A stretch of DNA of 32,693 nt from Bacteriovoracaceae bacterium (GCA_041586955.1 JBFGZE010000028.1:1-32693); one strand, 5' to 3'. Shown: positions 13,669 to 30,927, counted from the first letter of the stretch. A program made the numbers and translations. Notes: generated by a model from the letters alone, not told the origin.

Positions 13669-16600
13669 TTATATAGCTTTTCCTTTTTGTAAAAATGAGT
13701 AAAGACACGGAATGAATAGCAGAGTAATGGTGGTGGAAAATGCCATTCCCCAGCCCATAACAAGCATCATCTCGGCCAACATGGAATCATATCCGGCAAG
13801 TCCATAGGCGGTAGGCAAAATGGCCACCACCGTGGTAATCGTCGTCACAACAACAGGGCGAAGGCGAGTCGACGCAGCTCTAGCAAGACCTTCTAAATAA
13901 TGCTCCCCAGGTGCTAATATATTTTTTTCAATTTTATCAATCATGATGATGGAATCATTGATCACCACTCCAATCATGCCAAGCGCCCCTACTGCCGCAA
14001 AAAAGCCATAAACACTCATTCCATGGGTGATAAGAACGATAATAGCACCGGCCAAACCAAAGGGTATTATTGATACAACTAGCAGTGGAGTAACCAAAGA
14101 ATTAAACATGATCACTAGAATTAGGTAAATTAAGATGATGACCAAAAGCAACGAATTGCGAAAATTGGAACGGGAGTCTCGTGAATCTTCAATCTCTCCT
14201 GTAAATCTCAAAATAGCACTCGGAAATTCTTTGTTAATTTTGGGAAAAATATTTTGTTCTAAGTCTTCCGCTATTTCGATGGGTGTTTTTTTTGTTTCAG
14301 GCCGCAGGTCGGCAAAAACCATCGTTGTTCTTTTATTATTAGTTCTTGCAATATTAGCCGGACGCATCACCTCTTCCATGGTAATGAATTTGTTTAAAAG
14401 AATCAGTTGTCCATTTTTATTAAGAACTTTAAGCTTTAAAAGACCTTTTAAATTTTTCTTATTCTCATCGGGTACCGTTAATCGCAACTCCACCTCTTCA
14501 TCACCTTTATTAATGGTATAAAGAGTTGATCCTTCCACAAAGGTGCGTAATGCCGTGGTCACAGATGAAGGATTGATATTAAGTCGTACCAATTTCGGTT
14601 GGTCTATTTTAAAAAGGTACTCCTTTTTAATGAGAGGCCTTTCCAGCTCGACATTATCAAGAGCTGGATTCTTTTCCATATGGTTCTTAATCATTTGAGT
14701 AATCTTACTGCGAATTTGGTCATTATTTTCTTGAACTTGTAATTCGATAGCACTTCCAGATCCACGCCCCCAACGACTTTTTAAAATCTTAACTTCTGTA
14801 AGGCCATTAATCTCTTTGCTCTTTTTTTCCCATTTCTCGCGCAATACCTTTAAAGATACATCTCTTTGATCAGCGGGAATAAGCTCTACTCTTATTCCGG
14901 CTTCATTTTCTTTAACTTCACCACCTCGGCGACTTTGACCGATTCTACTTCTCACGGCAACAATGCGACCGGGACCTTCATCCAGAAACATTTGTTCTAG
15001 GGGTGCAATGGCCTGGGCAGTTTCTAAACGTGACGCTCCTTGCTCGGCAAATGCCTTGACGTATATTTCTTTACTCTCTTCACGCGGGAACATAACAAAT
15101 TTCATCTTAGTGGCAAAAACATAACCACAACCAATAAGAACCGCGATGAAACCACAGATAATGATCAAGCGATGACGTAATAGGATCGCAAGTGTCTTGG
15201 CATAACTCGCCTCCCATTTATAAAACCAATTTCGATGGCCTCTCACCAGGTTATCTAAAATTGGTGTTTTTCCAGAAAGATGTGCCGGTAGAATAAAAAG
15301 AGATTCAATTAAACTTCCAAGTAACATAAATATCACCATCAAAGGGATATAAGATACGAATTTACCAAAATGACCTTCAAAAAAAAGAAGAGGAACAAAA
15401 GCGACACAGGTAGTAATAATACTCGCGAGAATGGGACGAAATACTTCTTGCGTGCCATCTATTGCCGCGGCAATTAATGTTTTTCCCTGGTTCACATGCC
15501 GAGAGATATTCTCGGCAATAATAATGGCATCATCAACGACGATTCCCATTACTATAATAATCCCGGCCAAAGTCATATTGTTGACAGTGTAGCCTGCTAA
15601 AAGAGCACATATAATGGTAAAAGCAAGTGAAAATGGAATTCCCATCGCTACCCAAAATCCTGATTTAATATCGAGAAAAATCATTAAAACAATAAGAATA
15701 AGTCCAAAACCAATTAACCCATTCCAATGAATAATAGATAGTCGGTTGGTAACATCAAATGATTCATCATCCATCAAATGTACTTTTATTGGCGAATCGA
15801 CATTCATTTGATTAAAGTGATTCACGAATCGAACAACCGCATCTCGTGCCGCTAAGATATCTGTCGAAACAGTTTTTTTGACATTCAATATTACAGCTTC
15901 ATGGCCATTAATTTTATGAATGGCATTAGCTCTTTCAAAACCATTGGAGATATCGGCTATTTTACTGAGCTTTAATAGAGGACCTTCATAGGAACCTTTT
16001 AAGGCGAGATCGTTAAGTGATTCCACAGTATCGAGTTCATGCAAGGCGGTGACCTTTGACTCTCCACGATCATTTAATGAACCTATGGGCGATCTAATAT
16101 GATTGGAGCGGATTTGGTTATAAATTTCCGTTATGGAGATTTCAAAGTTATCAAGCTCCCTCGGTCTTAAAAGAACCTGTAGTTCTGGCGCGAGGTAACC
16201 AGATTTTGAAACACTACTCACTTGCGGAAGAGATAATATTTGATTTTCAAAAGTAAGGGCGTACTGTTGCAGCTCTCTACGCCCACCAGCATCTAAAAAT
16301 TGATGTTCTCGATGCACTAAGGCGATATCAATAATCGCCTTTTCGCTCGAGCGAAACTGGTGAAATGTCGGAATTTTACGCACCTCTGTGGGTAAATTAG
16401 TTCGTAAAACTGCATCCTTTATATCTTGAATAACCTGCTGCTTGTTGGGTGCATTGGAATCGATAAAAATACGAAAGGAGCTACTCCCAAGACTTGAGGT
16501 GCTTTGTACCTCTTCAAGTCCGCTGACCGACTTTAGTTGTTCCTCAATGGGCTTAGTAATAAATAATTCGACGTCCGCAGCAGGGGCACCAGGATAATGA

Positions 16601-16752
16601 GTCACGACCCGGATCCAGTCCATGGCAAACTCTGGCATTTCTTCTTTTCCTATTCGCCACCATGCCAAGATGGAAAGCATAATAATGCCGAAAAAGAGAA
16701 CGTTTGTTAATAAGTGTTTTGTCGCAAAGTAGCGGATAAGTTTATTCATCAT
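13669..16752 (-). CDS. RND transporter permease subunit (AcrB/AcrD/AcrF family)
   Basis: 1027 aa with YPGA...VE..ITKPIE, TM4 GIVVDDAIIIAENI, TM10 GVVINDSI and RLRPVVVTT. Confidence 0.93.
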   Translation of the reverse strand: MMNKLIRYFATKHLLTNVLFFGIIMLSILAWWRIGKEEMPEFAMDWIRVVTHYPGAPAADVELFITKPIEEQLKSVSGLEEVQSTSSLGSSSFRIFIDSNAPNKQQVIQDIKDAVLRTNLPTEVRKIPTFHQFRSSEKAIIDIALVHREHQFLDAGGRRELQQYALTFENQILSLPQVSSVSKSGYLAPELQVLLRPRELDNFEISITEIYNQIRSNHIRSPIGSLNDRGESKVTALHELDTVESLNDLALKGSYEGPLLKLSKIADISNGFERANAIHKINGHEAVILNVKKTVSTDILAARDAVVRFVNHFNQMNVDSPIKVHLMDDESFDVTNRLSIIHWNGLIGFGLILIVLMIFLDIKSGFWVAMGIPFSLAFTIICALLAGYTVNNMTLAGIIIVMGIVVDDAIIIAENISRHVNQGKTLIAAAIDGTQEVFRPILASIITTCVAFVPLLFFEGHFGKFVSYIPLMVIFMLLGSLIESLFILPAHLSGKTPILDNLVRGHRNWFYKWEASYAKTLAILLRHRLIIICGFIAVLIGCGYVFATKMKFVMFPREESKEIYVKAFAEQGASRLETAQAIAPLEQMFLDEGPGRIVAVRSRIGQSRRGGEVKENEAGIRVELIPADQRDVSLKVLREKWEKKSKEINGLTEVKILKSRWGRGSGSAIELQVQENNDQIRSKITQMIKNHMEKNPALDNVELERPLIKKEYLFKIDQPKLVRLNINPSSVTTALRTFVEGSTLYTINKGDEEVELRLTVPDENKKNLKGLLKLKVLNKNGQLILLNKFITMEEVMRPANIARTNNKRTTMVFADLRPETKKTPIEIAEDLEQNIFPKINKEFPSAILRFTGEIEDSRDSRSNFRNSLLLVIILIYLILVIMFNSLVTPLLVVSIIPFGLAGAIIVLITHGMSVYGFFAAVGALGMIGVVINDSIIMIDKIEKNILAPGEHYLEGLARAASTRLRPVVVTTITTVVAILPTAYGLAGYDSMLAEMMLVMGWGMAFSTTITLLFIPCLYSFLQKGKAI

Positions 16753-16807: not shown

Positions 16808-18259
16808 CTATAGAGATGTTAGTCTTTTTAGTTGACCAGACTTTTGCAGAAACCGGATAATAAAACGTTCGAGCGATATTTGTGATTTTTTATAATCAAT
16901 ATCTGTTTTTAACACTTCTTCATATTGAGTATTATAATCGTAAACAGATAAACTTCCCTGTTGTAGCTTCTTTTCATAAAAGCCAAGCTTCTCTTTAAGG
17001 AGACCGACCATCTTTTTATAGTTCATGACGATTTGCATTTGTTTTTTAATTTTTGCAACACCTTCTTTCAAATCAATTTCTTGCTCGAAGCGCGTTTTTT
17101 GTAACAATAATTTCTTTTGTTTCCAAAGAGCTTCCTTCATTAAACGTGACGATTTGGCCGCATAATTATGAACCGCTCGCTCCATAGTGAGTCCATAATT
17201 GGTTGTGGGAAATTGCCCCTCCCATACTTCTTTTTGCGCTAAACTATAGGTTTCTCGAACTCCGGCAAGTTTATAACTAGCACTCAAATCCATAGAGGGA
17301 AAGGAATCTCCTTTGGCCCAGGAAAATTCCCGCTTTGCTAAATTGACCTCTTCCATTCTTTTTTTCACTTCTGGGGAGTTATCGATTAGTTCTTTAAGGT
17401 CCCCCAGGCCTTTATCAATTTTTTTCCAATCTGAAACAAAGCCAAATTCTTTATCATATTTCCAAGGGTATTCTGTTTTTTGAAATAATTCTTGAGAAAT
17501 ATCTGCTGTAATTTTTTGAAATTTAATTTTTTGGTTTTCAAGCTTTTCTTGCGCTTTAAACAAATTAATTTGAGCATCGTTTTTTTGTATCAGAGATGCC
17601 TTTCCAAGAGAGAATTTCTTGACCATTAATTGAAATTTTTTTTCACCATTAATATAGGCCTGCTTTTTTAGATCCAATTGAAAAAGAGCATCCAATCCAT
17701 CGAGGTATTTTTCTATCAGTTTCACAATTAATTTACTTTGATCAATTTCGCTCTTCAATTGTCCCGTCCTGTCCTTCACAATGGCCTTATCATACTTTTT
17801 AGAGAAACGACCCCAATAAAAAAGATCTCTTAAGTCTTGCTCTAAGCTAAAGGTCAAAGATGGCTCGAAGGTTTTTTCAATACTACGAAATGTCGAGTTG
17901 GAATTGATAATATCAAGGCCATAAGGGACGCGAATAGTTGTTCCTGAGTAAAAGGACTTCGACATCGTTAGTCCATAACTTTGAGTTTTAGCAATAACTG
18001 AAGATGCGCCCCCGGCCCCGTCAAGAGACGAGCTACTGGGAGTGTTCGCTTTTGTATACCCTGCTTCTAAGCTGACATTAATATCAAATAATTCTGAGGC
18101 GCTAAGAACCTCTGAGCGACTGATATCAAGATCTAATTTCTTTTCTTGAAGCCCAAGGTTATTGCGACCAACGAGATCAAAAAAGACCTTTTTTGAGATA
18201 ATAAGCTCTTTTCCCAGAATACCCGAGAAAAACAAACAGAAAACACCAATAATATTCAT
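16808..18259 (-). CDS. TolC family outer membrane channel (paralogue 1)
   Basis: Two-fold repeat of helix / beta-hairpin / helix, with FPSMDLSASY and GKAS / GSLS turn motifs. The likely start is ATG 18259 (MNIIGVFCLFFSGILG signal peptide), not 18376. Confidence 0.8.
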   Translation of the reverse strand: MNIIGVFCLFFSGILGKELIISKKVFFDLVGRNNLGLQEKKLDLDISRSEVLSASELFDINVSLEAGYTKANTPSSSSLDGAGGASSVIAKTQSYGLTMSKSFYSGTTIRVPYGLDIINSNSTFRSIEKTFEPSLTFSLEQDLRDLFYWGRFSKKYDKAIVKDRTGQLKSEIDQSKLIVKLIEKYLDGLDALFQLDLKKQAYINGEKKFQLMVKKFSLGKASLIQKNDAQINLFKAQEKLENQKIKFQKITADISQELFQKTEYPWKYDKEFGFVSDWKKIDKGLGDLKELIDNSPEVKKRMEEVNLAKREFSWAKGDSFPSMDLSASYKLAGVRETYSLAQKEVWEGQFPTTNYGLTMERAVHNYAAKSSRLMKEALWKQKKLLLQKTRFEQEIDLKEGVAKIKKQMQIVMNYKKMVGLLKEKLGFYEKKLQQGSLSVYDYNTQYEEVLKTDIDYKKSQISLERFIIRFLQKSGQLKRLTSL

Positions 18260-18411
18260 AAGGCTACCTAGATCAGTTTTTAATATTCCTATTATCCTTC
18301 CATTAAAGTTCCTGCTCAAGGTAGAAATAACTGCGAAGCGCCCAAAAAACTCCCTTTTGAGGGAAAAAAAGATCATAAAAATCTAGTGAATTCCGACAAG
18401 AAACTATCATT

Positions 18412-20502
18412 ATGACAAATAAAAACTATCGAAAATACCCCGCTTTGCGGGATGACCTTAAGATATCTAAGATGAAGACTTCTGGCTCGATTCATTATGT
18501 GGTCAAAGACCCATTAAAAGAGCAATATTATCGCTTTAGTGAAGAAGAATGGCTGGTTATAGACTATTTCAGGGGATCAAAAACTCTAGAAGAGATAATG
18601 GCCCAGTTTAATTCAGACCATCAAGATATGGAAATCGACCTAGAGTCCGTTGAAGGCTATTGGAATCACTTGGATTCAATCAATATTCTACAAAAATCTC
18701 AAAAAGAAATGAATGTCATGCTCGTAGAGAAGATGAAAGAGATGCGCCAAAGTCAACTCCTGGCCAAAAAAGGAAGTCTCTTTTATAAACGTTTCCCGAT
18801 AATTGATCCCGACAAATTATTTGATAAGATCATTCCCTATATTGGATGGATTTGGAGCCTCCCTTTTTTTATCTTTTCATTTTCAATAATGATTACCGCT
18901 GTCATCATTATTTTAACCCATTGGACTGAATTCAATCAGGGTGTTTACGAAATCTTCAGCTTTTCAGAAATGTCAGCAGCTCATTTAATTACATTATGGG
19001 TTGTTATCTATGGAACAATTGCCCTGCACGAAGTTGGTCACGGTTTAACATGCAAATACTATGGTGGAGAAGTCCATGAAATAGGTTTTTTACTGCTCTT
19101 TTTTCAGCCTTGCCTATATTGTAACGTTAATGATGCCTGGCTATTTGATAAAAAGTGGAAACAAATATTGGTCACGCTGGCCGGTGGTTATATCGAATTC
19201 TTTATTGGTTCTATTTGCGCAATAATTTGGCTCATTACAAGTCCAAATACATTCATTAATGTCATCAGTATGCAAATCATGACTATTTGCTCGCTTTCAA
19301 CCGTATGCTTTAATTTTAATCCAATGATGAAGCTCGATGGCTATTACCTTTTATCAGACCTAGTCGAAGTCCCCAACCTTAAGGATGATTCGCTGGCGTA
19401 TTTAAAACACACTGTCGCTACTAAAATATTTCGAATGCCTGGCGAAAAATTCTATGCCACCAAAAGAGAAAAGCGTGTTTATCTTGTCTATGGAGTATGT
19501 AGCTTTATTTATATGACACTTTTATTGACAGGCCTTGTCGCCATGGCCAAAGGTATATTAGTCGATAGTTTTCACGAAATCGGTATTCTAATCACAGGTT
19601 TTATAGCCTATAAAATATTTGGTGGCCATGTCACAAAAAGTGGGTCTTTTATGCTGAAATTCTTTATCCAAAAAAGAAAATTCTTTAAATCCCCCAAATT
19701 TAAATTGGCCTTTGCAACAGCGATGGTGGGCCTAGTTATAACTCTCATTTTACCCATCCATTTTAAGCTTTATGGAAAATGTTTTTTAAATCCGCAAGCA
19801 ACCATTATAATGAGAACGATTGTCGACGGCCAAATCGAGAAGTTCTTTCTTAATGATGGCGAAATGATCAAATCGAGAGAAAATCTCTTTAAAATTAAAA
19901 ATGAAACAGTACCAATTAATCGCAAGATGGCCTCAACAGAGGTGAAGAAGCAGGAGTTAATGTTAAGAAAAACGCTTGTCCAAAATAAACGAAAATACCA
20001 AGAAGTAAAAAAGGAATTATTGTCTAAACAAATGACCCTTAAAGAACGAATTGCTGAAGAGACGGCATTAATCTACCGCTCACCAGAAATCTCGGGCCTA
20101 AATATGTTCTCTTGCCCTGATATCTATCAAAAGCTTGGAAGTTTTATTAACAAAGGTGATGAAATCTGCTCTATTCAAAAGATTGATGCCATGAAAACAA
20201 TTATTGAAATTAATGAAGCGCAAATAAGGTTTCTCCGAGCTGACCAAAAGGTAATTTTTAAATTATCATCCAACCCTGTTAAAAGTTATACTGGTAAAAT
20301 CAGCGAAATTCTACCTACCGGTAAGAACGATCCCAAAAACCCCCAGCGGAAAATATATAATGCGGTTCTAGAAATCAATAATCCAGGAGAATTACGCCCA
20401 GGAATGGAAGGCGTAGCAAAAGTTTATGGCATAGAAATGAGCATCTTTAAATATTTAATAGCAAAACTAACATCAACGTTAAGACTAGATTTATTTTATT
20501 AG
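18412..20502 (+). CDS. Fusion of a PqqD/RRE-like domain, an M50 (site-2) metalloprotease and a HlyD-type membrane fusion domain
   Basis: N-terminal P.LRDDL...YVVKDP...YYRF...GSKTLEEI, then HEVGH, LAGG and NFNPMMKLDGYY in a multi-TM region, and a C-terminal DGQIEKFFLNDG...LRPGMEG adaptor domain. Confidence 0.88.
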   Translation: MTNKNYRKYPALRDDLKISKMKTSGSIHYVVKDPLKEQYYRFSEEEWLVIDYFRGSKTLEEIMAQFNSDHQDMEIDLESVEGYWNHLDSINILQKSQKEMNVMLVEKMKEMRQSQLLAKKGSLFYKRFPIIDPDKLFDKIIPYIGWIWSLPFFIFSFSIMITAVIIILTHWTEFNQGVYEIFSFSEMSAAHLITLWVVIYGTIALHEVGHGLTCKYYGGEVHEIGFLLLFFQPCLYCNVNDAWLFDKKWKQILVTLAGGYIEFFIGSICAIIWLITSPNTFINVISMQIMTICSLSTVCFNFNPMMKLDGYYLLSDLVEVPNLKDDSLAYLKHTVATKIFRMPGEKFYATKREKRVYLVYGVCSFIYMTLLLTGLVAMAKGILVDSFHEIGILITGFIAYKIFGGHVTKSGSFMLKFFIQKRKFFKSPKFKLAFATAMVGLVITLILPIHFKLYGKCFLNPQATIIMRTIVDGQIEKFFLNDGEMIKSRENLFKIKNETVPINRKMASTEVKKQELMLRKTLVQNKRKYQEVKKELLSKQMTLKERIAEETALIYRSPEISGLNMFSCPDIYQKLGSFINKGDEICSIQKIDAMKTIIEINEAQIRFLRADQKVIFKLSSNPVKSYTGKISEILPTGKNDPKNPQRKIYNAVLEINNPGELRPGMEGVAKVYGIEMSIFKYLIAKLTSTLRLDLFY

Positions 20503-20510
20503 GATACGAT

Positions 20511-21251
20511 ATGAAAACAATTATTGCAGCTCTCTTTTCTATTTTAAATATTCAGGCAACGACAATTGGTATATTGCAAGGGAAAAAAGAAATCATTGTC
20601 TCTAGCAAAACCCAGGGAGAGATTAGAGAGATCCACTTCACTGAGGGAACCAAGGTTAAAGAGGGTGATATTATTTTATCTATTGATAATCAAAAGGAAA
20701 CAATAGAATATGAATTGGCCAAGAATGACTTTGATTCTGCGAAAGAGGATTATAATAAATCCAAAAAACTTAAAAAATACCTCTCGGGTGAGGAATTAAC
20801 AAAGAAGAGAAATTTATACCTTTCTAAGAAAGCGTCTTTTGAGCTAAAAGAATACGCTTTAAAAACAAAAGAAATTAAAACCCCGATAGATGGTATCCTC
20901 TCAAAGATCTTTCTTAAAGAAGGTGAAAATGTTGGTAGCGGAAAAGAGGCATTTGAAGTTATCTGGCCCGACAACCTTATCATTGACCTTGACATCAATG
21001 CCAAAAAGGCCCAGACCCTTGCGCTAGGCCAAGAAGTTTTATTTAACAGAGAAATTGACGATGGCGAGTTCAAGGCCAAAATTACCTTTGTTGGTAAAAC
21101 CGTAGATAAGGCATCTGGAACGATACATATTATTTTAGAATTAGATAATCCCCTTAAGGAGGACGGTAGTTATACCCTCACACCAGGGGAAATGGTTAAA
21201 ATACATTTCAAAGAAAAAGACTCTCAAAAGACAGTCATGACCAACAATTGA
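20511..21251 (+). CDS. Stand-alone periplasmic adaptor (membrane fusion protein) with a short signal peptide
   Basis: GEIREIHFTEGTKVKEGD, IKTPIDG, VDKASGT and LTPGEMV. Starts 8 nt after the M50 fusion gene. Confidence 0.88.
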   Translation: MKTIIAALFSILNIQATTIGILQGKKEIIVSSKTQGEIREIHFTEGTKVKEGDIILSIDNQKETIEYELAKNDFDSAKEDYNKSKKLKKYLSGEELTKKRNLYLSKKASFELKEYALKTKEIKTPIDGILSKIFLKEGENVGSGKEAFEVIWPDNLIIDLDINAKKAQTLALGQEVLFNREIDDGEFKAKITFVGKTVDKASGTIHIILELDNPLKEDGSYTLTPGEMVKIHFKEKDSQKTVMTNN

Positions 21252-23779
21252 TGAATCTTATCTAAAATAATTTTCCCAATTACGCGACTTCCTGTATAAA
21301 TTTTACCTCGGCCTGTCATTCCAGGTCGTAAAATACTGGCATCGCCATCCTTCGTTGTAATAATCGCTCGGGCCAAATAATAGGTTGTAGGGTCCGTTTC
21401 CAATAATTGTGTCGCCTCACCTCCTACCGAATTTAATTTAAAATCCTCAAAACTAACCGTAGGGTGACCAAAAACTTTGAATTTTACCGATTGATCCGAT
21501 TTTACGTGAATGATATTTTCTTGAGGCACCTCAAACTGGGCCAACATCTTTTCTTTGGAGGCAACCTTAATAATCTCCTTTCCATAAGTGACCGGAGTCC
21601 CCATCAACTCATGTAAATTCTCAGAGATAACGATCCCCTCTTCTTTCGCTCTAATAATAGAGCTATCAATCTTTTTTTCAAGAATAGTCATTTCATGAAT
21701 TAAGGATAATAATTCTTTTTCCTTAATTTTGTATTCAGCTATTTTCCGTTCATTCTTTAGCTTAAGCATCTCTACTCGAGTTTTCTCACGTGTTGATTCT
21801 TTCTGCTGGAGTTCGATAACAGAATCAGTAACATCTATTTCGGCCAGGATCTTTCCCTTCTCAACAAACTCTCCTTCCTTAACAAATACGTTTTTGACAA
21901 CGCCATTACTGAAAGAATAATAAGTATTAGTCAAAGGGATAATTTGAACAGACGTATTCACATTATAAGGAACCTTAACAATTGTAATGAGTAAGGACGC
22001 GGTGATTAGCCCTCCAACCAATTTAAGTATTTTTTTTAGCCCCCAATCTTTTATATTATAGAGTTTGGCAATTAATTCATCTTTAAGGTTAGTGAAATAC
22101 TGCCCACTAGGAATTGAATGATAGAGATCAACATTACGCAAAGAAACGGTTGTTTGAGTTGTTAAAATGCCTAATATTTCTTCGGTATTTGATGTCACCA
22201 AACCAGAATCGTCAGACTCGATATGGATGATACCAACTGGACCTTGATCATCCTTAAGTAATTTTATCCATATACTTTTGAGTTCATGGTCTTCCATATA
22301 TTTTTTTACAAACTCATGATCTGATACAAACTCATAAGCTTCACGATTATCAACATAGAGTTCATCCATTTCAAGCTTCAAAAACTGATTATGAATGATA
22401 TCAATATTCTTCTGCTCTTTATTGTCAAAATCAATTTCTTTTTCACCACTAATGGCGCGAAGTAAAACACAATCATCTCTCTTCATCTTCATGGTTGAAA
22501 CCGCCATAAGATCAAAAGGGATGAGCTCTCCTGATAAATTGACCAGAGAGACAAGCACACTATCTAAATCAAGTGTTGAGGTAATTTCTCGTCCAATATC
22601 AATAAGCGCGGTGAGATCTTTTGCCTTTTTTTCTGAGGCAAATAAGCGAGCATTTTTAATATACATTGCACTTGAACCGGCAAATAAATTAAGAAGTTCA
22701 AGGTCTTCCTCATTAAATAATGGAGCTGCCCCTGCTTTATTAAGGATTTGAATGGCGCCAATACATTCACCTTTAACAATAAATGGAGAGCAGATCATAG
22801 ACTTTGAGATAAAATTAGTTTTTTGATCAACCGCTCTCGAAAAATGGTCATCAAGTGAACAGTCTTCAATGATATGGGCCTCTTTTGACTCAATAACTGA
22901 TCCAATTATTCCTGTGCCTTTCTTAAGTTTAACCCCTTCAACCATATTTTTTGTTGGCCCATGGGCGTATTGACAGACATAACCTTCTTTTGAGTCTTCG
23001 ACCAGCCAGACTGAACCAACTTCAGCTCCCACTAAATGAATCGCTTTTTGCAAAACTAATGGCAGGAGTTTATCAATATCCATAGTTGAACTAAATAATT
23101 CATGCAATTCTGAGAAGGTTTGCATTCTTTTGAGAAGTCCATCCTGTTTTTTTAATGTTCTTCTAGTCTTAATATGCATAGCAACAGTCGTTGCCAGATC
23201 TTCTAAAAAAAACTTATCGGAATCTGAAAATGATTCGCTGACATTGATTTTATTCACCGTTTGGATAACACCCACAACTTCATTGGCATAGATTAAGGGA
23301 CATGATATTAGCGATTTTGTATTTGATTTCTTTTTATTAAAAAATCGTTGATCGGTACTCGTATCATAGACAATTGCCGACTTTTTATTCTCAGCACTCC
23401 AGCCGACAATCCCCTCACCGATTTTAAGGCTTAGCCCTTTGAGTTGAGAGGCCCCTGGGCCATGTGCGACTTTTAAATGAAGAAGATCCTCTTCAATGAT
23501 CCACAATGATCCACCTTCGGCCTCAACACCTTGACACACAATTTCAAGGAGTCCTTTCATCATATTAAAAAGACTGAGTGAGTTATTTTGGTAAAATTCA
23601 TTAATACGATGATAGCACGCGAGTTTTTTATCGGATAAGCTATCACTTTGGATCTCATTTTTTAAATGAAGACTTATAGGATTAACGGCGGTAACACCTT
23701 CTAGGACTTTAAATTTATTTTTTTCCTCTTCTCCTTTAACCACGACATCTTTCTTTTTAAAGCGAAACTTTAAGGCCAT
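21224..23779 (-). CDS. Three GAF domains, a TM helix and a HlyD-type membrane fusion domain
   Basis: GAF repeats (GEGIVGW...SLISCPL..VGVIQTVNK; GTGIIG...SMICSPF..IGAIQILNK; a divergent third), a TM segment, then GVVKNVFVKEGEFVEKG...LRPGMTGRGKI. Confidence 0.88.
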   Translation of the reverse strand: MALKFRFKKKDVVVKGEEEKNKFKVLEGVTAVNPISLHLKNEIQSDSLSDKKLACYHRINEFYQNNSLSLFNMMKGLLEIVCQGVEAEGGSLWIIEEDLLHLKVAHGPGASQLKGLSLKIGEGIVGWSAENKKSAIVYDTSTDQRFFNKKKSNTKSLISCPLIYANEVVGVIQTVNKINVSESFSDSDKFFLEDLATTVAMHIKTRRTLKKQDGLLKRMQTFSELHELFSSTMDIDKLLPLVLQKAIHLVGAEVGSVWLVEDSKEGYVCQYAHGPTKNMVEGVKLKKGTGIIGSVIESKEAHIIEDCSLDDHFSRAVDQKTNFISKSMICSPFIVKGECIGAIQILNKAGAAPLFNEEDLELLNLFAGSSAMYIKNARLFASEKKAKDLTALIDIGREITSTLDLDSVLVSLVNLSGELIPFDLMAVSTMKMKRDDCVLLRAISGEKEIDFDNKEQKNIDIIHNQFLKLEMDELYVDNREAYEFVSDHEFVKKYMEDHELKSIWIKLLKDDQGPVGIIHIESDDSGLVTSNTEEILGILTTQTTVSLRNVDLYHSIPSGQYFTNLKDELIAKLYNIKDWGLKKILKLVGGLITASLLITIVKVPYNVNTSVQIIPLTNTYYSFSNGVVKNVFVKEGEFVEKGKILAEIDVTDSVIELQQKESTREKTRVEMLKLKNERKIAEYKIKEKELLSLIHEMTILEKKIDSSIIRAKEEGIVISENLHELMGTPVTYGKEIIKVASKEKMLAQFEVPQENIIHVKSDQSVKFKVFGHPTVSFEDFKLNSVGGEATQLLETDPTTYYLARAIITTKDGDASILRPGMTGRGKIYTGSRVIGKIILDKIHQLLVMTVF

Positions 23780-23794
23780 TATTACCTCTATCCT

Positions 23795-25189
23795 TTATAT
23801 CGAAATGAGACCGCTAAGGTCTGCCAATTCTAGCTTTTGTTTAAATTTTTCATAAATAATTTGAAATAACTCTAACTCTACTTTTTCTAATTCTGTTATT
23901 TTTTTCTTTAATTCGAAGAAAGAGATTCGGCCCAAACTATAGAGCTTCTTCTTGCCATTAAAATTTACCTTTTCGAGCCTTAATCTTTTACGGAGCAATA
24001 GACTTTTAGTCTCAATATTAGAAAGCTCCCGTTTAATAGCATCCTTCTTGCTTAATTTCTCGTAATCATGTTTTTTTAATTGTATCAACTTCTGATTATA
24101 CCTAGCTAGCTCGGATGTCTTTTCCCTAATCCCAAAAAGTGCCTCTAAGCTGGTTGAAAAATTGATCGATATGGACCATTCGGGGTTCGTAAACTGAAAA
24201 CCGTTGGTAAACTCTCTAGTTAACTTTTTAGAAACGCTCGATGAGAGCGCGGACATCTCAAGGTCTAATTTTACCTGGTTATTTTCGCTTTCCTTTAGTC
24301 GATCAATCTTTAAATCGCTCAATTCTGACAAAACAAGTTGTCTTTTATAATCACGTGGTTTTAATTTTAATACGAGATCGTCAATATTGACTGATGGAAT
24401 GCGCCCCTCTGGCAATTGAATTGTGTTATTCGTTATACGCTTAAGAAGGTACAACTCCTTTAGGTATTTTAAATTAAGCGTCTCGATATTGACGTGAACT
24501 TTTTGAATTTCAATTTTATTTTCTAACCAATCAATCTGCCCTTCATGACCGCTTCTCTTTTTCGCCAATGTTTGTTTAAGTAGCCCCTCGTAATACTTCA
24601 AGGTCTTTAACTTTAATATTTTTTTCTGTCTTAAAAGGTAGACTTCGGCGAATGAAAGATAAGCTTCCTTTAATCTTTCTGCTAATTCTATTTTTAATTT
24701 CAAATCAGCTCTTTTTTTCTTAATGTCATTTTTGTAATAATTTTCGTGATTCGAGAACTTTTCATTTCTCATTAGAGGGTAAGTCATAATGCTTTTAAAG
24801 GCGGTGGTATAATAGCGCGGGCCAATAGCATTGATTGAATTTGAATGGGTCTCTAAAGTTTGCCACGATGTTTCAACCTCCAGGCCACTCAAAAATTTTT
24901 TAGTAAATCCTAGGCTGAGACCACTACTTTTTTCTTGGACCACGCTTAAATCAAGTGATGAATTAGAAAATGACTTTTCCTTTTCATAAAGCCCACTAAA
25001 AAAGATATTCCAATCAATAGAATGATCCTTAGCAATTGATTCATATTCATTGATTTTTACATTTTGTTTTTCTAATTGAATATTAGTGTTGTTTTCTAAG
25101 AGTAAAAGTTTTAATTCTTGTAGCCCCATTGGTCGACAATAAATCGTGTTTATGAAACTTAAAAAAATAAGAAATTTGAGTATAAACAT
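23795..25189 (-). CDS. TolC family outer membrane channel (paralogue 2)
   Basis: Signal peptide, 464 aa, TolC-like alternation of helices and strands, and LYSLGRISFFEL. Local similarity to paralogue 1. Confidence 0.75.
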   Translation of the reverse strand: MFILKFLIFLSFINTIYCRPMGLQELKLLLLENNTNIQLEKQNVKINEYESIAKDHSIDWNIFFSGLYEKEKSFSNSSLDLSVVQEKSSGLSLGFTKKFLSGLEVETSWQTLETHSNSINAIGPRYYTTAFKSIMTYPLMRNEKFSNHENYYKNDIKKKRADLKLKIELAERLKEAYLSFAEVYLLRQKKILKLKTLKYYEGLLKQTLAKKRSGHEGQIDWLENKIEIQKVHVNIETLNLKYLKELYLLKRITNNTIQLPEGRIPSVNIDDLVLKLKPRDYKRQLVLSELSDLKIDRLKESENNQVKLDLEMSALSSSVSKKLTREFTNGFQFTNPEWSISINFSTSLEALFGIREKTSELARYNQKLIQLKKHDYEKLSKKDAIKRELSNIETKSLLLRKRLRLEKVNFNGKKKLYSLGRISFFELKKKITELEKVELELFQIIYEKFKQKLELADLSGLISI

Positions 25190-25200
25190 TTATGTTTCCA

Positions 25201-25232
25201 AAAAAAAAGGGCAGGGAAAACCCCGCCCTTTC
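25201..25232 (-). terminator. Intrinsic terminator after the acidic repeat protein gene
   Basis: The minus strand reads AAAGGGCGGGG-TTTT-CCCTGCCC followed by T8, 10 nt after the stop. Confidence 0.88.
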
Positions 25233-25242
25233 ATTATACTCT

Positions 25243-28200
25243 TTAACTAGCTTGCTGATACGTACCGTCAACTTCTTCCCCTGCCGGGTGTCCACCGTCA
25301 TGATCTAAGAAGTCAGCTGACTCTGAAGAGATCACGAAAGAACCGTCATCGAAGTATTGTGTATCTTCAGGAAGGTCAATGGAAAATTGTCCTTCAGGGC
25401 CAATACTGATCGGTTCAGGTGCCATTTCATTTAAGGCGGCATTAGAGACATGCAACGAATGTCCCTCCTCATTATACTCTACGCCCTCAGGAATATGCGC
25501 ATGAAGAGTTCCTTCTGCGTCAATATGATACTCTATATCCTGTGGCATATCAGTCAGCTCATAAGAGCCGGCCGGGATATCAATAGTTCCCAATTCTGCA
25601 TTAAATGTAGCATCTTCAGGAATCTTAATATCAGCAGTTCCATCGGCATTCAAAGTAAAGTCTTCAGGAATCAAATCGCCACCCAATTCTTGCATGGCCA
25701 TATCTGCACTCATCTCAACTGTACCTGTGGCAGGATCAACATTAATTCCTTCAGGAGGAGTAATGGTAACAGATCCATCTGGGTTATCATTGACCCATTC
25801 TGGACCTTGCTCAACATAATCCATTCCAGGGTTTTCAATAAAATCGGCCGAACACTCAGGAATATTGGCGCCACCATCATCAAAATAATGCGTGTCATGC
25901 GGCAGATCAACTATAACAGAACCGTCATACTCCATAGTAATGGCATCAGGAGTCATTGCATTGGTCCAATAATGATCAAAATGAACACTACCTTCCTCAG
26001 CATTAAAATCCATCCCCTCTTGAAGATTGATACTAATAGTACCATCATCGTTAAGAGTCGCATCCATTTCAGCTGGAATTTCATCCATATGCATCTCCCC
26101 TGCAGGGAAAGTCAATGAATTAGAGGCAGCATCAAATGCCGTTCCTGCTGGAACCTGGGCGGTAATCGTCCCATCCTCATGAAGTGTTATATCATCAGGA
26201 ATATATTCTTCAAAATGCTCATTAACAAATTCGCTGTTCATTTCCATTTGACCGGCTTCAGCGTTAAACTCAAGTCCCTCTTGTGGAACAATGGCAACTG
26301 AACCATCTGGATTAACATTAACGAAGTCTGGGCCTTCAGTTACATACTCAGGAGCAGGGTTCTCAAGAAAGTCCGCTTGGTACTCAGGAACAGTAAATGA
26401 ACCATCATCATGAAATTGAGTGTCTTGAGGAAGATCAACCACAAGGTTACCTTCCGCTGTCACTTCAATAGGATCAGGTGTCAATTCATTAGTCCAATAA
26501 TTATCAAAGTGAACTTGACCAGCATCACCATCATAATTCATACCATCTTGAAGTGTGATCGTAATTGTACCATCAGCATTCACTTCAGGGTTAAAGTTTT
26601 CAGGAACCTCTGCCACATTCATTTCACCTTCTGGGAAGATTATAGCATTGGCTTCAGTGTCATATTGAGTTCCCTCTGGAAGATCGACATTCATCGTCCC
26701 GTCTGCATTGAAATGAATTTCTTCAGGCACGGGAATATGCTCGTCAATCATTTCATTGGGAATTGTCGCTTCACCAGCTTCTGCGTTAACTTCGATTCCT
26801 TCAGGAGGAGTAAAAGTATACTCACCCTCTGGGCCTACTTCTGAAAACTCAACATCATGAACAAAGTCAGGTTGCTCCGCTTCAATAAAGTCAACATGGT
26901 CGGCCGGAACGGTGAAAGAACCATCGTCAAAATACTCTGTTCCCTCTGGAAGAGCAATATTCACATTCCCCTCTGCGGTGATTTGCACGCTGTCGGGGGT
27001 AATTTCATTGGTCCAGTAATTATCCATATGAACAGAACCCGTATCCGGATTAAAATCCATCCCCTCTTGTAGCATAACTGTGGTTGTACCATCTGGGTTA
27101 ATATGGGCATCAACACCCTCAGGAACTTCATCAAGATTAATTTCACCTTCTGGCAAAACAACACCATTAATATCAGCATCGTATTGGGCCCCCTCAGGAA
27201 GAGGAATCTCAGAAGTACCATCGGCATTAATTTGTAAATCAGTTTGCTCTGAAAATGTTTCATTAAAAACTTCAGCATCCATGGTGGCAATTCCACCATC
27301 AACTTCAATTCCCTCTGGTGGTTCAAAAGTCACAGCACCATCTGGAGCAGTTTCAGTGAACTCAAGATCATTGATTATTTCTGGAGCTGGATTATCCATT
27401 TGACCTGCGGCCTCAGCAGAAATTTGGATTTGACCATCGTTATATTCAACACCATCTTGTGGTAATTGTACTTCAACACTACCGTCTAGGGAGATTTCGA
27501 CGTTTTCAGGAGTTATTTCATTCGCCCAATAATTGTCGACTTCAACTGACATATTTTCCATGTCAACTTCTATCCCCTGATCGGGAAGATTGACCATAAT
27601 AGACCCATCAGCATTTGGATAAGCTTCTAGTTCATTGGGAACTTCTTCTAAATTAATTTCCCCTTCAGGAAACATTAATTGATTGGAGGCCTCTAAGTAT
27701 TGAGTCCCTTCAGGCAAAGGCATTTCCATCCCCCCCTCTGGAGTAATCTCAACACCTTCTGGAAGTGGTAATTCTTCATTGGCCACCTCAATCGGAAAGT
27801 TGGCGGTTCCAGCATCAGGGTCAACAGTGACACCCTCTGGAGGTGTTGCCGAAAAAGATCCATCTGCTTGCGCCTCAACCCAATCCGGCTCAGACCAACC
27901 TTCGTGCTGGCCCATATCGCCTTCAGGAGCGTCATTATGAAACTCGTCAACTTCTTCTGATAATGTTTCATCTTGTTGCTCATACTCAGATTCAGGGGCG
28001 TCTTGTTCAAACATTTCACCCTGATGGGCCTGTGCCTCATCCAAGTATTGTCCTTCTTGGCCTTCAGGAGCTTGATCAAAAGACTCAGTTGAAGTTTGTT
28101 GAATTTCTTCCTGACCAGCTTGATCAGTGGTATCAGCATCAACGGCATCAACCATACCAGGATCAACCAGGCCGCCGCCGACCATTCCTGGTGCAATACG

Positions 28201-28251
28201 ATCTTCTAATTTCTTCGACTGAATTTTTTTCATAGATTTTTTCTTTGTCAT
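25243..28251 (-). CDS. Large hyper-acidic repeat protein with a basic KKLEDRIAP leader; putative exported cargo
   Basis: AAGGGAG ribosome-binding site, 1002-aa ORF with five ~172-176-aa repeats, its own terminator, and no hydrophobic signal peptide. Confidence 0.85.
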   Translation of the reverse strand: MTKKKSMKKIQSKKLEDRIAPGMVGGGLVDPGMVDAVDADTTDQAGQEEIQQTSTESFDQAPEGQEGQYLDEAQAHQGEMFEQDAPESEYEQQDETLSEEVDEFHNDAPEGDMGQHEGWSEPDWVEAQADGSFSATPPEGVTVDPDAGTANFPIEVANEELPLPEGVEITPEGGMEMPLPEGTQYLEASNQLMFPEGEINLEEVPNELEAYPNADGSIMVNLPDQGIEVDMENMSVEVDNYWANEITPENVEISLDGSVEVQLPQDGVEYNDGQIQISAEAAGQMDNPAPEIINDLEFTETAPDGAVTFEPPEGIEVDGGIATMDAEVFNETFSEQTDLQINADGTSEIPLPEGAQYDADINGVVLPEGEINLDEVPEGVDAHINPDGTTTVMLQEGMDFNPDTGSVHMDNYWTNEITPDSVQITAEGNVNIALPEGTEYFDDGSFTVPADHVDFIEAEQPDFVHDVEFSEVGPEGEYTFTPPEGIEVNAEAGEATIPNEMIDEHIPVPEEIHFNADGTMNVDLPEGTQYDTEANAIIFPEGEMNVAEVPENFNPEVNADGTITITLQDGMNYDGDAGQVHFDNYWTNELTPDPIEVTAEGNLVVDLPQDTQFHDDGSFTVPEYQADFLENPAPEYVTEGPDFVNVNPDGSVAIVPQEGLEFNAEAGQMEMNSEFVNEHFEEYIPDDITLHEDGTITAQVPAGTAFDAASNSLTFPAGEMHMDEIPAEMDATLNDDGTISINLQEGMDFNAEEGSVHFDHYWTNAMTPDAITMEYDGSVIVDLPHDTHYFDDGGANIPECSADFIENPGMDYVEQGPEWVNDNPDGSVTITPPEGINVDPATGTVEMSADMAMQELGGDLIPEDFTLNADGTADIKIPEDATFNAELGTIDIPAGSYELTDMPQDIEYHIDAEGTLHAHIPEGVEYNEEGHSLHVSNAALNEMAPEPISIGPEGQFSIDLPEDTQYFDDGSFVISSESADFLDHDGGHPAGEEVDGTYQQAS

Positions 28252-28506
28252 TAAACGACTCCCTTAAATGAAAATTTATGATTTTTGAGATGTTTTCATT
28301 ATCGAAATTAATGACCTCAATATGTAGGAGGAAAAAATTGTTTTTTTAATAAAAATAAAAGATTCATGAAATATCAATTAGTTGTAAAAGAGTAGTCACA
28401 AATTAGCACGAGAAGAGATTTCTCCCCATAAAAAAAGCGAATCAATCAAATACCTAAAGGGGACCTAAAGAATAAACCTTTGTAATGGTTTTAAATAAGG
28501 AAAATA

Positions 28507-29484
28507 TTAAATTATTAGATTATCATCATCCTCATAATCATGCCAAATAACACCTAAATGGATCACGCGAGAACCGACTTGGCAGACAGGATTAGTCGAC
28601 TTTGCCACGACAACCGCGTTCACCGGGGCGACAATTTCTTCAATAACTGAACCAAAAATATCTGTTATATTCGCAATGAGATCACCCTTCTTAATAAGAT
28701 CGGTTAAATTGGGGAAGACATGCAAGATTCCTCCATTTTTGGCATACACCCAAAAGGACTTTTTACAAATGATAGCGTCGTGATCGATGTCCTCCATCTC
28801 CTCGTCGATCATTCCTAAATCAACAAGAACATTATTAAGGCCAAAAATTGATGGCCTAATATGTTTTTTTTGAAAAAGATAAGGATCTCCGACTTCCACA
28901 GTGATAGTAGGAATACCTATACGAGAGGCCTCCCCTCTTAAAGTCCCTGCTTCACCACATTTATTGACGATTATTTGAGGCTCTTGTAACTCTGCCATTT
29001 GCGCGACAATTTCATGCGACATATCTGCTCGTACATACAGCGAGTTAATACGGCCAAAGCTCGCGGTGTGCAGGTCAATGAGGTAATCCACATTTTTGAC
29101 AATTTTATTAATAATCGAAAAGGCAAAAACTTCAGAGGTCGTACCATTCTTTTTTCCAGGCATAATGCGATTTAAATCCTTGCCGTCAGAAAATGCCCTC
29201 TCCCCAGCAAGAAATCCCGGAGTATTCAAAACAGGAGCGAGCAAAATGATTCCTGTTAATTCATTCTCGTTTATTTTGCCCCATAGTTCATGAATAATAG
29301 AGATACCATTCAATTCATTGCCATGAATAGCGGCAGTTACACCTAAGATGGGGCCAGGCCTCCCCTTGGCAATCATCAAAGGAATTTGCCAAAAATCCCC
29401 TAGAGCATTTTTAACAATATTGAGTTTGAACGTATTTTTACTATTGGCCGGTAAAGATCCCAAGTCTAAGTCGTTAATTTCCAT
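28507..29484 (-). CDS. Succinylglutamate desuccinylase/aspartoacylase family (M14-like) zinc hydrolase
   Basis: AAIHGNELNG, DLNRIMPG, IDLHTA, TVEVG and a C-terminal lipoyl-like domain. Confidence 0.9.
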   Translation of the reverse strand: MEINDLDLGSLPANSKNTFKLNIVKNALGDFWQIPLMIAKGRPGPILGVTAAIHGNELNGISIIHELWGKINENELTGIILLAPVLNTPGFLAGERAFSDGKDLNRIMPGKKNGTTSEVFAFSIINKIVKNVDYLIDLHTASFGRINSLYVRADMSHEIVAQMAELQEPQIIVNKCGEAGTLRGEASRIGIPTITVEVGDPYLFQKKHIRPSIFGLNNVLVDLGMIDEEMEDIDHDAIICKKSFWVYAKNGGILHVFPNLTDLIKKGDLIANITDIFGSVIEEIVAPVNAVVVAKSTNPVCQVGSRVIHLGVIWHDYEDDDNLII

Positions 29485-29496
29485 AGTCGTTATCCT

Positions 29497-30927
29497 TTAG
29501 ATCATAATTTCTCTTATTAAAGCATCATCATTATTTAGCGATTTAAATAATTTCAATGAAAATGGCCCTTTCGAAGTCATTAAATTTTGGGCCATTTTAT
29601 CAATGGCAATGATAGAAAGAATGGTTTGAATATACGCATCAATAAGGTCGTCCGTTCCAAGCCCTAACGAATTAAAATCTTTTCTATCCATTAGTAATAA
29701 GCGAGAGGTGTCAGAACCCCATTCATTCTCTCCCTTTTTGATAGAGAGGTTTGTACCTAAGACATCCCAGCTAGAGTTTTCAAGAAATGGCCGGATTGGG
29801 CCTAGCGCACGCCGGGCATAAATAGCACAGGGGTAAAACCCATCTTCCGTTGAATAAACCATCATTCTTAAATCAAAAATATAAATATTTCCTTTCGTAT
29901 TGGGAATGGTACCGATATGAAATAAATTTCCATTTTCCTCTCGAGAACTCCAATTATAATGACCAATTAAATGCTGAACAATAAATTGATCATAGGGATA
30001 ATTCTCGTTCATAAATTTGTATAACTCATCTTCATTCACGATAGTAAAAACTCCTTGTCCAGCATTGGAATAAGGGTTTTTTACAACTGCATGCCCTCCA
30101 AACTTTTTCACCCAAAGGGGTATTCCCAATTTATCGACATTCCGAATAGTTTTAGGTGTTCTAATTTGAAGACCCGTGTCCATTAATTCTAAGTTATAAA
30201 TTTCATAGGCCTTGTCTGCCAAAAGTTTATTTCGGCCTCCGGCCAAGCAGGTTAGTGTGGAATTGTAAATTAGAGTTTTTGTCTCAATTGGCATGCGATT
30301 CCACGGCCTCTGTGTGACATAGCGGAAGGCTGCTCTAATGGCCACTTTCCCTTTGGACGGATCATCGATATACATAATGCCATTATCAAAACTCACAAAA
30401 CTATGTTCACGGTTAAAATGAGGAACCAGATACACATCTTCATCCGTTAAGTCGGCAATAGTCGCCGCATAGCCAGAATTTTCCATATAGTTTTTATCGT
30501 ATATAACCGCCAAATCGCCCTTTGGTAATCTCCTCTGATTCAATAGAGGCAAAAAAGAATTTTCTATCAAACAACGATAACCCCTATATTCGTCTGAATC
30601 GCTTCTTGGGGGCATTGATTTTTGACCGGAGGGACAAGAATTGGTTTCAAGAACCACCATACTGCGATTTCCGATATCCGTGGTGACATAGAATAGATCC
30701 GATCCTCCCCAAAAAAAATGCTTGGATTGATATTTTAAAATTGTCATCAAGAACTGAGGGTCTAGTTGAGGGTGTAAATGAGTATAGCGCTTAACGATAC
30801 GCTCATGACTCATATCAAAAAAATAATTCACCAAAGAATGCAATTGAGAGTTGAGCGCTTTTGGATAGAAGTGTTTTTCTTGTTCAAAGCTATGCGGTTT
30901 AATTAATTCAACTTCTCTTTTCATCAT
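29497..30927 (-). CDS. Putative circularly permuted ATP-grasp ligase
   Basis: N-terminal D...VLETNSCPSG precedes VVKNPYSNAGQGV, FIVQHLI and DLRMMV. Confidence 0.65.
   Translation of the reverse strand: MMKREVELIKPHSFEQEKHFYPKALNSQLHSLVNYFFDMSHERIVKRYTHLHPQLDPQFLMTILKYQSKHFFWGGSDLFYVTTDIGNRSMVVLETNSCPSGQKSMPPRSDSDEYRGYRCLIENSFLPLLNQRRLPKGDLAVIYDKNYMENSGYAATIADLTDEDVYLVPHFNREHSFVSFDNGIMYIDDPSKGKVAIRAAFRYVTQRPWNRMPIETKTLIYNSTLTCLAGGRNKLLADKAYEIYNLELMDTGLQIRTPKTIRNVDKLGIPLWVKKFGGHAVVKNPYSNAGQGVFTIVNEDELYKFMNENYPYDQFIVQHLIGHYNWSSREENGNLFHIGTIPNTKGNIYIFDLRMMVYSTEDGFYPCAIYARRALGPIRPFLENSSWDVLGTNLSIKKGENEWGSDTSRLLLMDRKDFNSLGLGTDDLIDAYIQTILSIIAIDKMAQNLMTSKGPFSLKLFKSLNNDDALIREIMI

Follow-up and report, generated by a model that had tools for sequence, protein, structure and literature searches.

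Computational evidence for a RiPP-like leader on a 1002-residue repeat protein and its likely recognition by a neighbouring RRE-M50-HlyD protease

The 32,693-nucleotide stretch of a Bacteriovoracaceae genome analysed here (GCA_041586955.1 JBFGZE010000028.1:1-32693, hereafter the window) encodes, at 25243-28251 on the minus strand, an acidic repeat protein of 1002 residues (the cargo) whose basic N-terminus runs into the motif LEDRIAP. The best-supported reading is that this N-terminus is a leader like those of peptides made by the ribosome and modified after translation (RiPPs), carried here by a protein of 1000 residues, and we consider it likely that it is recognized by a nearby fusion of a RiPP recognition element (RRE), an M50 site-2 protease and an HlyD-type adaptor (RRE-M50-HlyD). 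Confidence in the exact cut and in export is lower. The first-pass annotation had proposed a targeting and cleavage signal acting like a RiPP leader at bases 28180-28251 (-), which are codons 1-24 of the open reading frame (ORF) 25243-28251 (-). Its targeting part is supported by synteny, co-distribution, motif conservation, a predicted fold and a model of the complex, whereas cleavage and its position, export and the energy source are what we infer.

The cargo protein begins MTKKKSMKKIQSKKLEDRIAPGMVGGG (N-terminus as read from the ORF, MTKKKSMKKIQSKKLEDRIAPGMVGGGLVDPGMVD), with a good ribosome-binding site, AAGGGAG, 7 bases 5' of the ATG. It is laid out as a leader, an acidic linker, five repeats and a short tail:

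25243..28251 (-), cargo gene, 1002-aa acidic repeat protein (ORF list, 38 homologues, composition)
28189..28251 (-), putative leader, residues 1-21, MTKKKSMKKIQSKKLEDRIAP, a Lys-rich stretch and then LEDRIAP (conservation, complex model)
28189..28209 (-), core motif L15-E16-D17-R18-I19-A20-P21, a case of [LF]ExR[IV][AT]P (alignment, enrichment beside M50-HlyD genes)
28156..28188 (-), conserved post-motif stretch, residues 22-32, GMVGGGLVDPG (alignment; model contacts up to residue 31)
27931..28155 (-), acidic low-complexity linker, residues 33-107 (composition)
25309..27930 (-), five tandem repeats of about 175 aa, residues 108-282, 283-455, 456-628, 629-804 and 805-981

Eight of the nine Lys and Arg residues of the cargo (positions 3, 4, 5, 8, 9, 13, 14, 18 and 876) fall within residues 1-18, and the isoelectric point drops from 10.4 for residues 1-21 to 4.05 for the remainder, which is 23.5% Asp plus Glu and has one Cys. 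No 19-residue window of the cargo reaches 1.6 on the Kyte-Doolittle scale, so it has neither an h-region nor a transmembrane segment. A Sec or Tat signal peptide is not recognizable in the cargo, which lacks the h-region and has R18 as its single Arg and hence no twin arginine. The first-pass annotation had described seven Lys in residues 1-14, LEDRIAP-GMVGGG without a hydrophobic h-region and an abrupt change to acidic sequence, and all three descriptions are borne out. No RTX or C-terminal secretion-signal family was detected in the cargo with Pfam and NCBIfam. The repeat unit is predicted to fold confidently (predicted local distance difference test, pLDDT, 93.4) and is present in 4 to 11 copies per orthologue (n=10 orthologues); fold comparison found no convincing solved relative, which in itself neither makes the fold new nor tells its function.

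The leader is far better conserved than the protein that follows it. A protein search returned 38 cargo homologues, all from uncultured organisms and, where named, from Oligoflexia, Bdellovibrionota or Bdellovibrio-like bacteria. LE[DE]RIAP lies within the first 150 residues in 32 of them, and the other six are incomplete records or begin within the motif or beyond it, as at MVGGG in one example. The 21-residue core KKLEDRIAPGMVGGGLVDPGM has a mean identity of 88% to the window copy (minimum 52%) across 31 homologues, against only 34-57% for whole cargo proteins. The basic stretch before the motif is variable, the motif beginning 12 to 85 residues from the first residue. L15, E16, R18, I19, A20 and P21 are invariant in a 16-sequence alignment that spans Oligoflexia, Planctomycetota, SAR324, Magnetococcales, Chlamydiales and Thalassomonas, and G25 and G26 are invariant in all 16 of these large-protein leaders. 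Judged from these alignments, conservation of the leader exceeds chance. Absence of the motif from orthologues had been named beforehand as grounds for abandoning the idea, and it fails as an objection because of the 32 motif-bearing homologues and the near-constant core.

Next to the cargo gene the window encodes a protease, adaptors and outer-membrane proteins:

25205..25232 (-), terminator-like hairpin between the cargo gene and the 464-aa gene, 12 pairs, 7 of them G-C, with a T run (consensus match only)
23795..25189 (-), divergent TolC-family (OEP) outer-membrane protein, 464 aa, with a signal-peptide-like N-terminus (orthologue matches, synteny 6/6)
21224..23779 (-), GAF-GAF-HlyD protein, 851 aa, in which one transmembrane-like segment (583-601) joins a large cytoplasmic part to an adaptor domain in the periplasm
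20511..21251 (+), small HlyD-type periplasmic adaptor, 246 aa
18412..20502 (+), RRE-M50 site-2 protease-HlyD fusion, 696 aa, the proposed leader reader and peptidase
18433..18696 (+), predicted RRE (PqqD-like leader-binding) domain, fusion residues 8-95
16808..18376 (-), TolC-like outer-membrane protein (OEP), 522 aa

About 4.7 kb separate the cargo gene from the M50-HlyD gene. In six orthologous loci from other genomes of the class, the cargo is accompanied by M50-HlyD (6/6) and the 464-aa protein (6/6) and, within the stretches fetched, by GAF-HlyD (5/6; none in that of locus L020), the small HlyD protein (5/6) and TolC (4/6), with gene order shuffled among the loci. The window copy of the 464-aa protein has no Pfam or NCBIfam match; it is taken as a second TolC-family protein because OEP matches 9 of 10 aligned members (window copy plus nine orthologues; best E 4.5e-36). 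The cargo occurs in 8 of 201 genomes of the class and an M50-HlyD orthologue (E<=1e-160) in those same 8, which span 7 genera but, being related, are not independent; one further genome has a distant paralogue only.

The fusion contains Peptidase_M50 and HlyD domains by profile match, and its best curated match is NF041824, the daptide intramembrane metalloprotease (E 7.7e-48, residues 30-398), at 163.5 bits under a 300-bit cut-off. The motifs HExxH (H206, E207, H210) and NxxPxxxxDG (N301, N303, P304, D309, G310) show no variation among 18 sequences drawn from several phyla and, because of this and because the nearest curated relative is the daptide leader peptidase, the protease looks active. 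Residues 8-95 are predicted as three strands followed by three helices (pLDDT 84), which in the model is an RRE fold; it is seen by fold only, Pfam giving neither PqqD nor any other family at E<=10 in M50-HlyD residues 1-140. Segment 41-95 of the RRE has 13 Asp or Glu against 4 Lys or Arg, which fits a Lys-rich partner.

Modelling of M50-HlyD residues 1-420 together with cargo residues 1-50, with an alignment for each chain, gave complex scores of 0.68, 0.70 and 0.68, the best of three controls reaching 0.01; in the calibration of the tool, 116 of 157 solved complexes and 2 of 215 mismatched pairs attained the mark. Agreement between the runs is at least 83% of contacts. In the model, leader residues 4-26 and 28-31 make contact with the RRE strand 38-43 and helix 71-90, as well as with H206, E207 and H210, the invariant 227-243 stretch and the NxxPxxxxDG region (300-312). 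L15 contacts residues 38-41, 240 and 243, and R18 contacts 238-243 and 312. The surest contacts are those of L15, E16, D17, R18 and I19, which the model sets between the RRE beta3 strand and the conserved face of the protease. Binding of the leader by RRE-M50-HlyD is thus supported at the level of a model.

The same tag recurs beside M50-HlyD genes in several phyla. M50-HlyD fusions are very common (1738 proteins in one protein search), and an alignment-based search of a collection with one genome per species turned up at least 590 loci, the best 80 of which were analysed; a close-relative locus search with a single M50-HlyD protein found nothing. Six-frame translations of the 80 loci (1.30 Mb) were searched with a hidden Markov model (HMM) of the 35-residue core and with the strict pattern [LF]ExR[IV][AT]P. 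The core HMM recovers the cargo orthologues and also matches ORFs that neighbour the protease gene in Planctomycetota, Magnetococcales, Chlamydiales, Thalassomonas, Alteromonadaceae and Psychromonadaceae, at E values (3e-7 to 5e-5) that are relative to this small database, and gives many weaker matches in Gemmatimonadota, Acidobacteriota, Verrucomicrobiota and a Limnocylindrales genome. The strict pattern matches 61 times in 36 of the 80 loci, the distance to the protease gene having a median of 2.25 kb and a maximum of 7.7 kb. Reversed sequence gave 1 match, and six frames of the whole 3.46-Mb window genome gave 2, the cargo gene and a LEYRIAP deep in a frame that is not gene-like. One of the strict matches, in a 21-residue frame of locus L098, is probably chance. 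GAF-HlyD lies next to M50-HlyD in 39 of the 80 loci, and the tag is found in 27 of these 39 against 9 of the 41 without. The search of the window genome for similar N-termini that the first-pass annotation suggested was run, and the cargo ORF alone has a basic N-terminus followed by LE[DEP]R.

The tag is borne by three kinds of protein, and the part common to them stops at Pro. The Gemmatimonadota bearers are tandem peptides of 45-55 residues with a conserved front, VRIELTxEQKxQIKxxTGKD...ELEERIAP, and 3-11 residues after Pro. Two to six tandem peptide genes are present in each of loci L047, L054, L067, L069, L070, L074, L080, L083, L087, L090, L094 and L095, with variable tails such as LRI, LMF, YRF, VRIT and TSIDPSIGTFF, and a BTAD-AAA_16 regulator and Ser/Thr kinases are found near the peptide genes of L067 and L087. 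These peptides could be exported signal peptides. Bearers in Acidobacteriota, Verrucomicrobiota and others are peptides whose short front, LxIEELEQRIAP, leads into a tail of 24-70 residues rich in Gly, Asn, Pro and Ser. The third kind comprises large proteins of 600-2000 residues with a Lys-rich start and then KLEDRIAP-x-x-x-GG, like the window cargo. Fourteen tagged small peptides scanned against NCBIfam and Pfam gave no curated family above threshold, the sub-threshold rows being Amm_Lyn_leader (E 0.04-0.08), NHLP-clan Os17 (E 0.009) and DUF1192 (E 0.003). In Alteromonadaceae and Thalassomonas loci, genes for the tagged protein, GAF-HlyD, M50-HlyD, HlyD and OEP lie on one strand. The tagged proteins at L043:3851-7489 (an Alteromonadaceae metagenome-assembled genome) and L046:2971-7404 (Thalassomonas, 1478 aa) consist of Tcp10_C-type repeats (E 3e-52 and 2e-65); these are unrelated to the window repeat, so the tag sits on different cargo types. 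The window cargo belongs to this informal LE-x-RIAP class, which is defined in this analysis: LEDRIAP stands at residues 15-21, no hydrophobic segment is present and an RRE-M50-HlyD gene lies nearby with GAF-HlyD and HlyD partners. No paper on the LE-x-RIAP tag or its link to such a machine was found in the literature.

In the mechanism that we propose, cargo residues 1-21 would form a dedicated leader bound in the cytoplasm by the RRE of the neighbouring fusion, where L15-I19 would pair both with strand beta3 of the RRE and with the conserved protease face, CNVNDAW, and the intramembrane zinc site would then remove the leader. The available part of the daptide report describes a leader removed by an RRE-fused site-2 protease and carrying conserved L(-7) and P(-1), among other residues (10.1101/2023.03.08.531785). 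By this analogy the likeliest cut would fall directly after the invariant Pro21 (P21/G22), a position favoured because L15 would then be at -7 and P21 at -1, as in the daptide leaders of that account. A cut after the invariant Gly25-Gly26 is an alternative, and residues 22-32 may mark where translocation begins or lie on the prime side of the cut. The three HlyD-type adaptors (M50-HlyD, GAF-GAF-HlyD and the small HlyD protein) and TolC-family channels would together span the envelope and carry the acidic repeat protein out of the cell.

The likeness to daptides extends to the peptidase, as in MpaP/DapP and in the window protein alike an RRE at the N-terminus precedes an M50 protease with HExxH. 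In contrast to the daptide enzyme, the window protease is fused to a periplasmic HlyD adaptor, its cluster contains two further adaptors and TolC-family partners and no modifying enzymes, and the cargo has 1002 residues whereas a daptide peptide has a few dozen. The cluster is accordingly not a daptide system, for its protease scores 163.5 rather than 300 bits and the set of DapB, oxidoreductase, aminotransferase and methyltransferase is absent from it. As regards RRE-dependent RiPP precursors in general, the partner carries a predicted RRE domain and is modelled to bind the leader; no modifying enzyme is found among the conserved cluster genes, and the cargo is a predicted folded repeat protein rather than a modified core.

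Several points weigh against this account. All support for it is computational. Residues 22-32 match the leader in conservation, and a leader that is simply discarded would not account for this. In the complex model the pLDDT of the partner is low, at about 57 (at least 56), the alignments used differ from those of the calibration, and the score may partly reflect known likeness because RRE-leader complexes are solved. Site-2 proteases usually cut membrane helices, whereas the cargo leader is not hydrophobic. The LE-x-RIAP tag is missing within 10 kb in 44 of the 80 M50-HlyD loci, including 12 of the 39 with a GAF-HlyD neighbour, although in 6 of these 12 the DNA stops at the GAF-HlyD gene or breaks off within the cargo gene. 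The cluster contains no ATP-binding cassette (ABC), major facilitator superfamily (MFS) or conserved resistance-nodulation-division (RND) pump and no ATPase, and the only SecA_DEAD match in the genome is an 853-aa frame as expected of ordinary SecA; the account thus offers neither a path across the inner membrane nor a driving force.

The first-pass annotation had likened the N-terminus to the LEPR-XLL and Planc_extracel motifs, treating both as established export or cleavage signals, a status for which no literature backing was found. Membership of the cargo in these families is improbable. The LEPR-XLL model NF012209 (LEPR-8K; NCBIfam, 24 positions, cut-off 17 bits) and the Planc_extracel model PF07595 (Pfam, 20 positions, cut-off 25.5 bits) do not match the whole cargo or residues 1-41 at E<=10, and six-frame scans of the genome gave one 10.6-bit match elsewhere for the former and one 12.2-bit match on another contig for the latter, none at the cargo locus. 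The LEPRxLL motif itself is not present, as the cargo reads LEDRIAP with Pro and Leu-Leu replaced, whereas 30 collected LEPR segments read FExLEPR[LV][LM]L[SD]. LEPR-positive Planctomycetota genomes carry up to 14 scattered matches apiece, against one such protein here, and the window genome has no secondary SecA. The layout is nonetheless similar, because in each case a large repetitive protein without a Sec-type signal carries a basic stretch and then L-E-x-R-hydrophobic at its N-terminus. When anchored on the motif, 60 LExRIAP segments give the consensus veELEeRIAP and the 30 LEPR segments FEaLEPRLLLS; with a LEPR HMM, 13 of the 60 LExRIAP segments (about 0.6 expected) exceed the 1% level set by composition-matched shuffles, but the LExRIAP HMM recovers only 3 of the 30 LEPR segments at that level. 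We do not claim homology of the two tags, because these cross-profile scores are weak.

LEPR-XLL proteins are nevertheless linked to a variant of the same machine. In a survey of 151 Planctomycetota genomes, given here as plain counts uncorrected for relatedness, NF012209 matched 15 and M50-HlyD was present in 40, comprising 15 of 15 LEPR-positive and 25 of 136 LEPR-negative genomes. Planc_extracel matched 2 of the 151, too few to judge co-occurrence, and five planctomycete genomes picked for M50-HlyD gave 1 NF012209 match in total. In two genomes LEPR-XLL proteins are encoded 2-4 kb from machine genes; one of these proteins reads FVFEQLEPRVMLDADL in a 5105-residue frame, two others read MFE[PQ]LEPRLLL[ND]GN, and the remaining LEPR proteins of both genomes lie away from the machine. 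One locus (L137, G340:C1:178000-197900) has the order HlyD, OEP, PBP-like, GAF-HlyD, M50-HlyD and a truncated SecA of 707 residues, and the other (L138, G306:C146) has a truncated SecA of 744 residues together with M50-HlyD and GAF-HlyD. Truncated SecA thus stands beside the protease in both LEPR loci examined, whereas the window genome has ordinary SecA only, and LEPR proteins are many and scattered per genome. Because LEPR-XLL proteins accompany this SecA-bearing variant, the likeness of LEDRIAP to LEPR-XLL is probably not accidental, and we regard LE-x-RIAP and LEPR-XLL, which share E-x-L-E-x-R-hydrophobic, as sister tags of one machine family. Among the 80 M50-HlyD loci, none has a SecA-like neighbour, and LEPR-like or LExLExR motifs in the flanks look like chance matches, with one exception in L084, where a possible N-terminus of planctomycete type lies 8-9 kb away from the protease gene. 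The 44 loci without the LE-x-RIAP tag are mostly from Gemmataceae and other Planctomycetota (for example L052, L058, L063, L076 and L099); within 10 kb they have neither a LEPR-like tag nor a SecA-like gene, and most lack a GAF-HlyD neighbour.

The invariant G25 and G26 invite comparison with double-glycine leaders. In C39-type ABC exporters an exporter-borne protease cuts an N-terminal leader, and type I giant-adhesin systems (HlyBD-TolC, and LapBCE-LapA with LapG) also share with the window HlyD-type adaptors, a TolC channel and an acidic, repetitive cargo. If the cargo leader were of this kind, a C39 peptidase-ABC transporter would cleave it behind G25-G26 or G26-G27 and the M50 protein would do another job, and the HlyD and TolC partners, typical of such exporters, would fit. 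We rate this as highly improbable. The C39 family PF03412 was not found in the 88%-complete genome or in the cluster, no ABC transporter is among the conserved cluster genes, and the protease present is an M50 intramembrane enzyme with an RRE. Many small tagged peptides have no Gly-Gly after the motif, the common part ending at Pro, and the spacing misfits the LSxxELxxIxGG consensus. An alternative that keeps the reading of the N-terminus by RRE-M50 is that it serves as an anchor or regulated-proteolysis switch, with the GAF sensor controlling release, or as part of a signalling device whose protein is retained in the envelope. The GAF domains do point to regulation, no pump or ATPase is present, the 3-11-residue Gemmatimonadota tails resemble signals rather than structural cargo, and the conserved residues 22-32 could act after cleavage. 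We consider it unlikely all the same, given three periplasmic adaptors and two TolC-family proteins in the cluster, the OEP in the same operon in the Alteromonadaceae and Thalassomonas loci, and a very acidic, repetitive cargo with a single Cys, traits of proteins secreted unfolded through TolC-type channels.

The proposed recognition of a RiPP-like leader by RRE-M50-HlyD, with export of the cargo, also bears on a gene set of GAF, Peptidase_M50 and HlyD proteins found beside secondary SecA_DEAD proteins (Kamneva, Poudel and Ward 2015, PMC4452313). In the available part of that paper, the authors propose that the module is related to type I secretion and that M50 may form a pore in the membrane, and that part names no cargo or leader for the module. 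As there, GAF-HlyD, M50-bearing HlyD and plain HlyD (biotin-lipoyl) proteins occur together here, often with OEP. In contrast to the published module, no secondary SecA is present in the window genome, whose one SecA_DEAD match lies on another contig, nor is there a SecA-like neighbour in the 80 loci. A broader interpretation, which we hold as a tentative possibility, is that LE-x-RIAP and LEPR-XLL both address an undescribed diderm secretion route composed of the RRE site-2 protease-adaptor, two further adaptors and TolC. Such a route would need no ABC, RND or MFS pump to handle cargo as small as tripeptide-tailed signals and as large as proteins of 5000 residues, and truncated SecA would be the motor in one branch.

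Other features of the window surround this cluster. An AcrB-type RND pump gene (13669-16752 (-)) adjoins the TolC-like gene and probably lies outside the system, because the orthologous loci have no homologue of it. Just 5' of the cargo gene, 28507-30927 (-) encodes an AstE/AspA-family deacylase and a 476-aa protein without a Pfam or NCBIfam match; the AstE-like gene was not found in the six syntenic loci, and a terminator-like hairpin (28407-28430) separates these genes from the cargo gene. No GG-N10-GC sigma-54 promoter is present 5' of the cargo gene, and sigma-70-like matches there are no commoner than in shuffles. Among listed sequencing runs, the window is represented in 3 DNA runs, all from a single marine metagenome study, and in no RNA run. 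At 11316-13599 (+), an EgtB-like gene (DinB_2 plus FGE-sulfatase) is followed by one for an EgtD-like histidine methyltransferase, a pair that looks like ergothioneine synthesis.

If the proposed mechanism is true, the principle of an RRE joined to an intramembrane protease, used for small modified peptides, would also address very large proteins, directing them to an envelope-spanning apparatus without a conventional pump and raising the mechanistic question of the inner-membrane path and the driving force for transport. It would give a function to a large unstudied family annotated as 'HlyD family / putative peptide zinc metalloprotease' (at least 590 loci, 1738 proteins) and a testable explanation of the LEPR-XLL motif. 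A tag of about 30 residues would be available to try for the secretion of foreign proteins. A simple motif would serve to find the cargoes of these machines, and would provide a sequence rule for the secretomes of many uncultured phyla.

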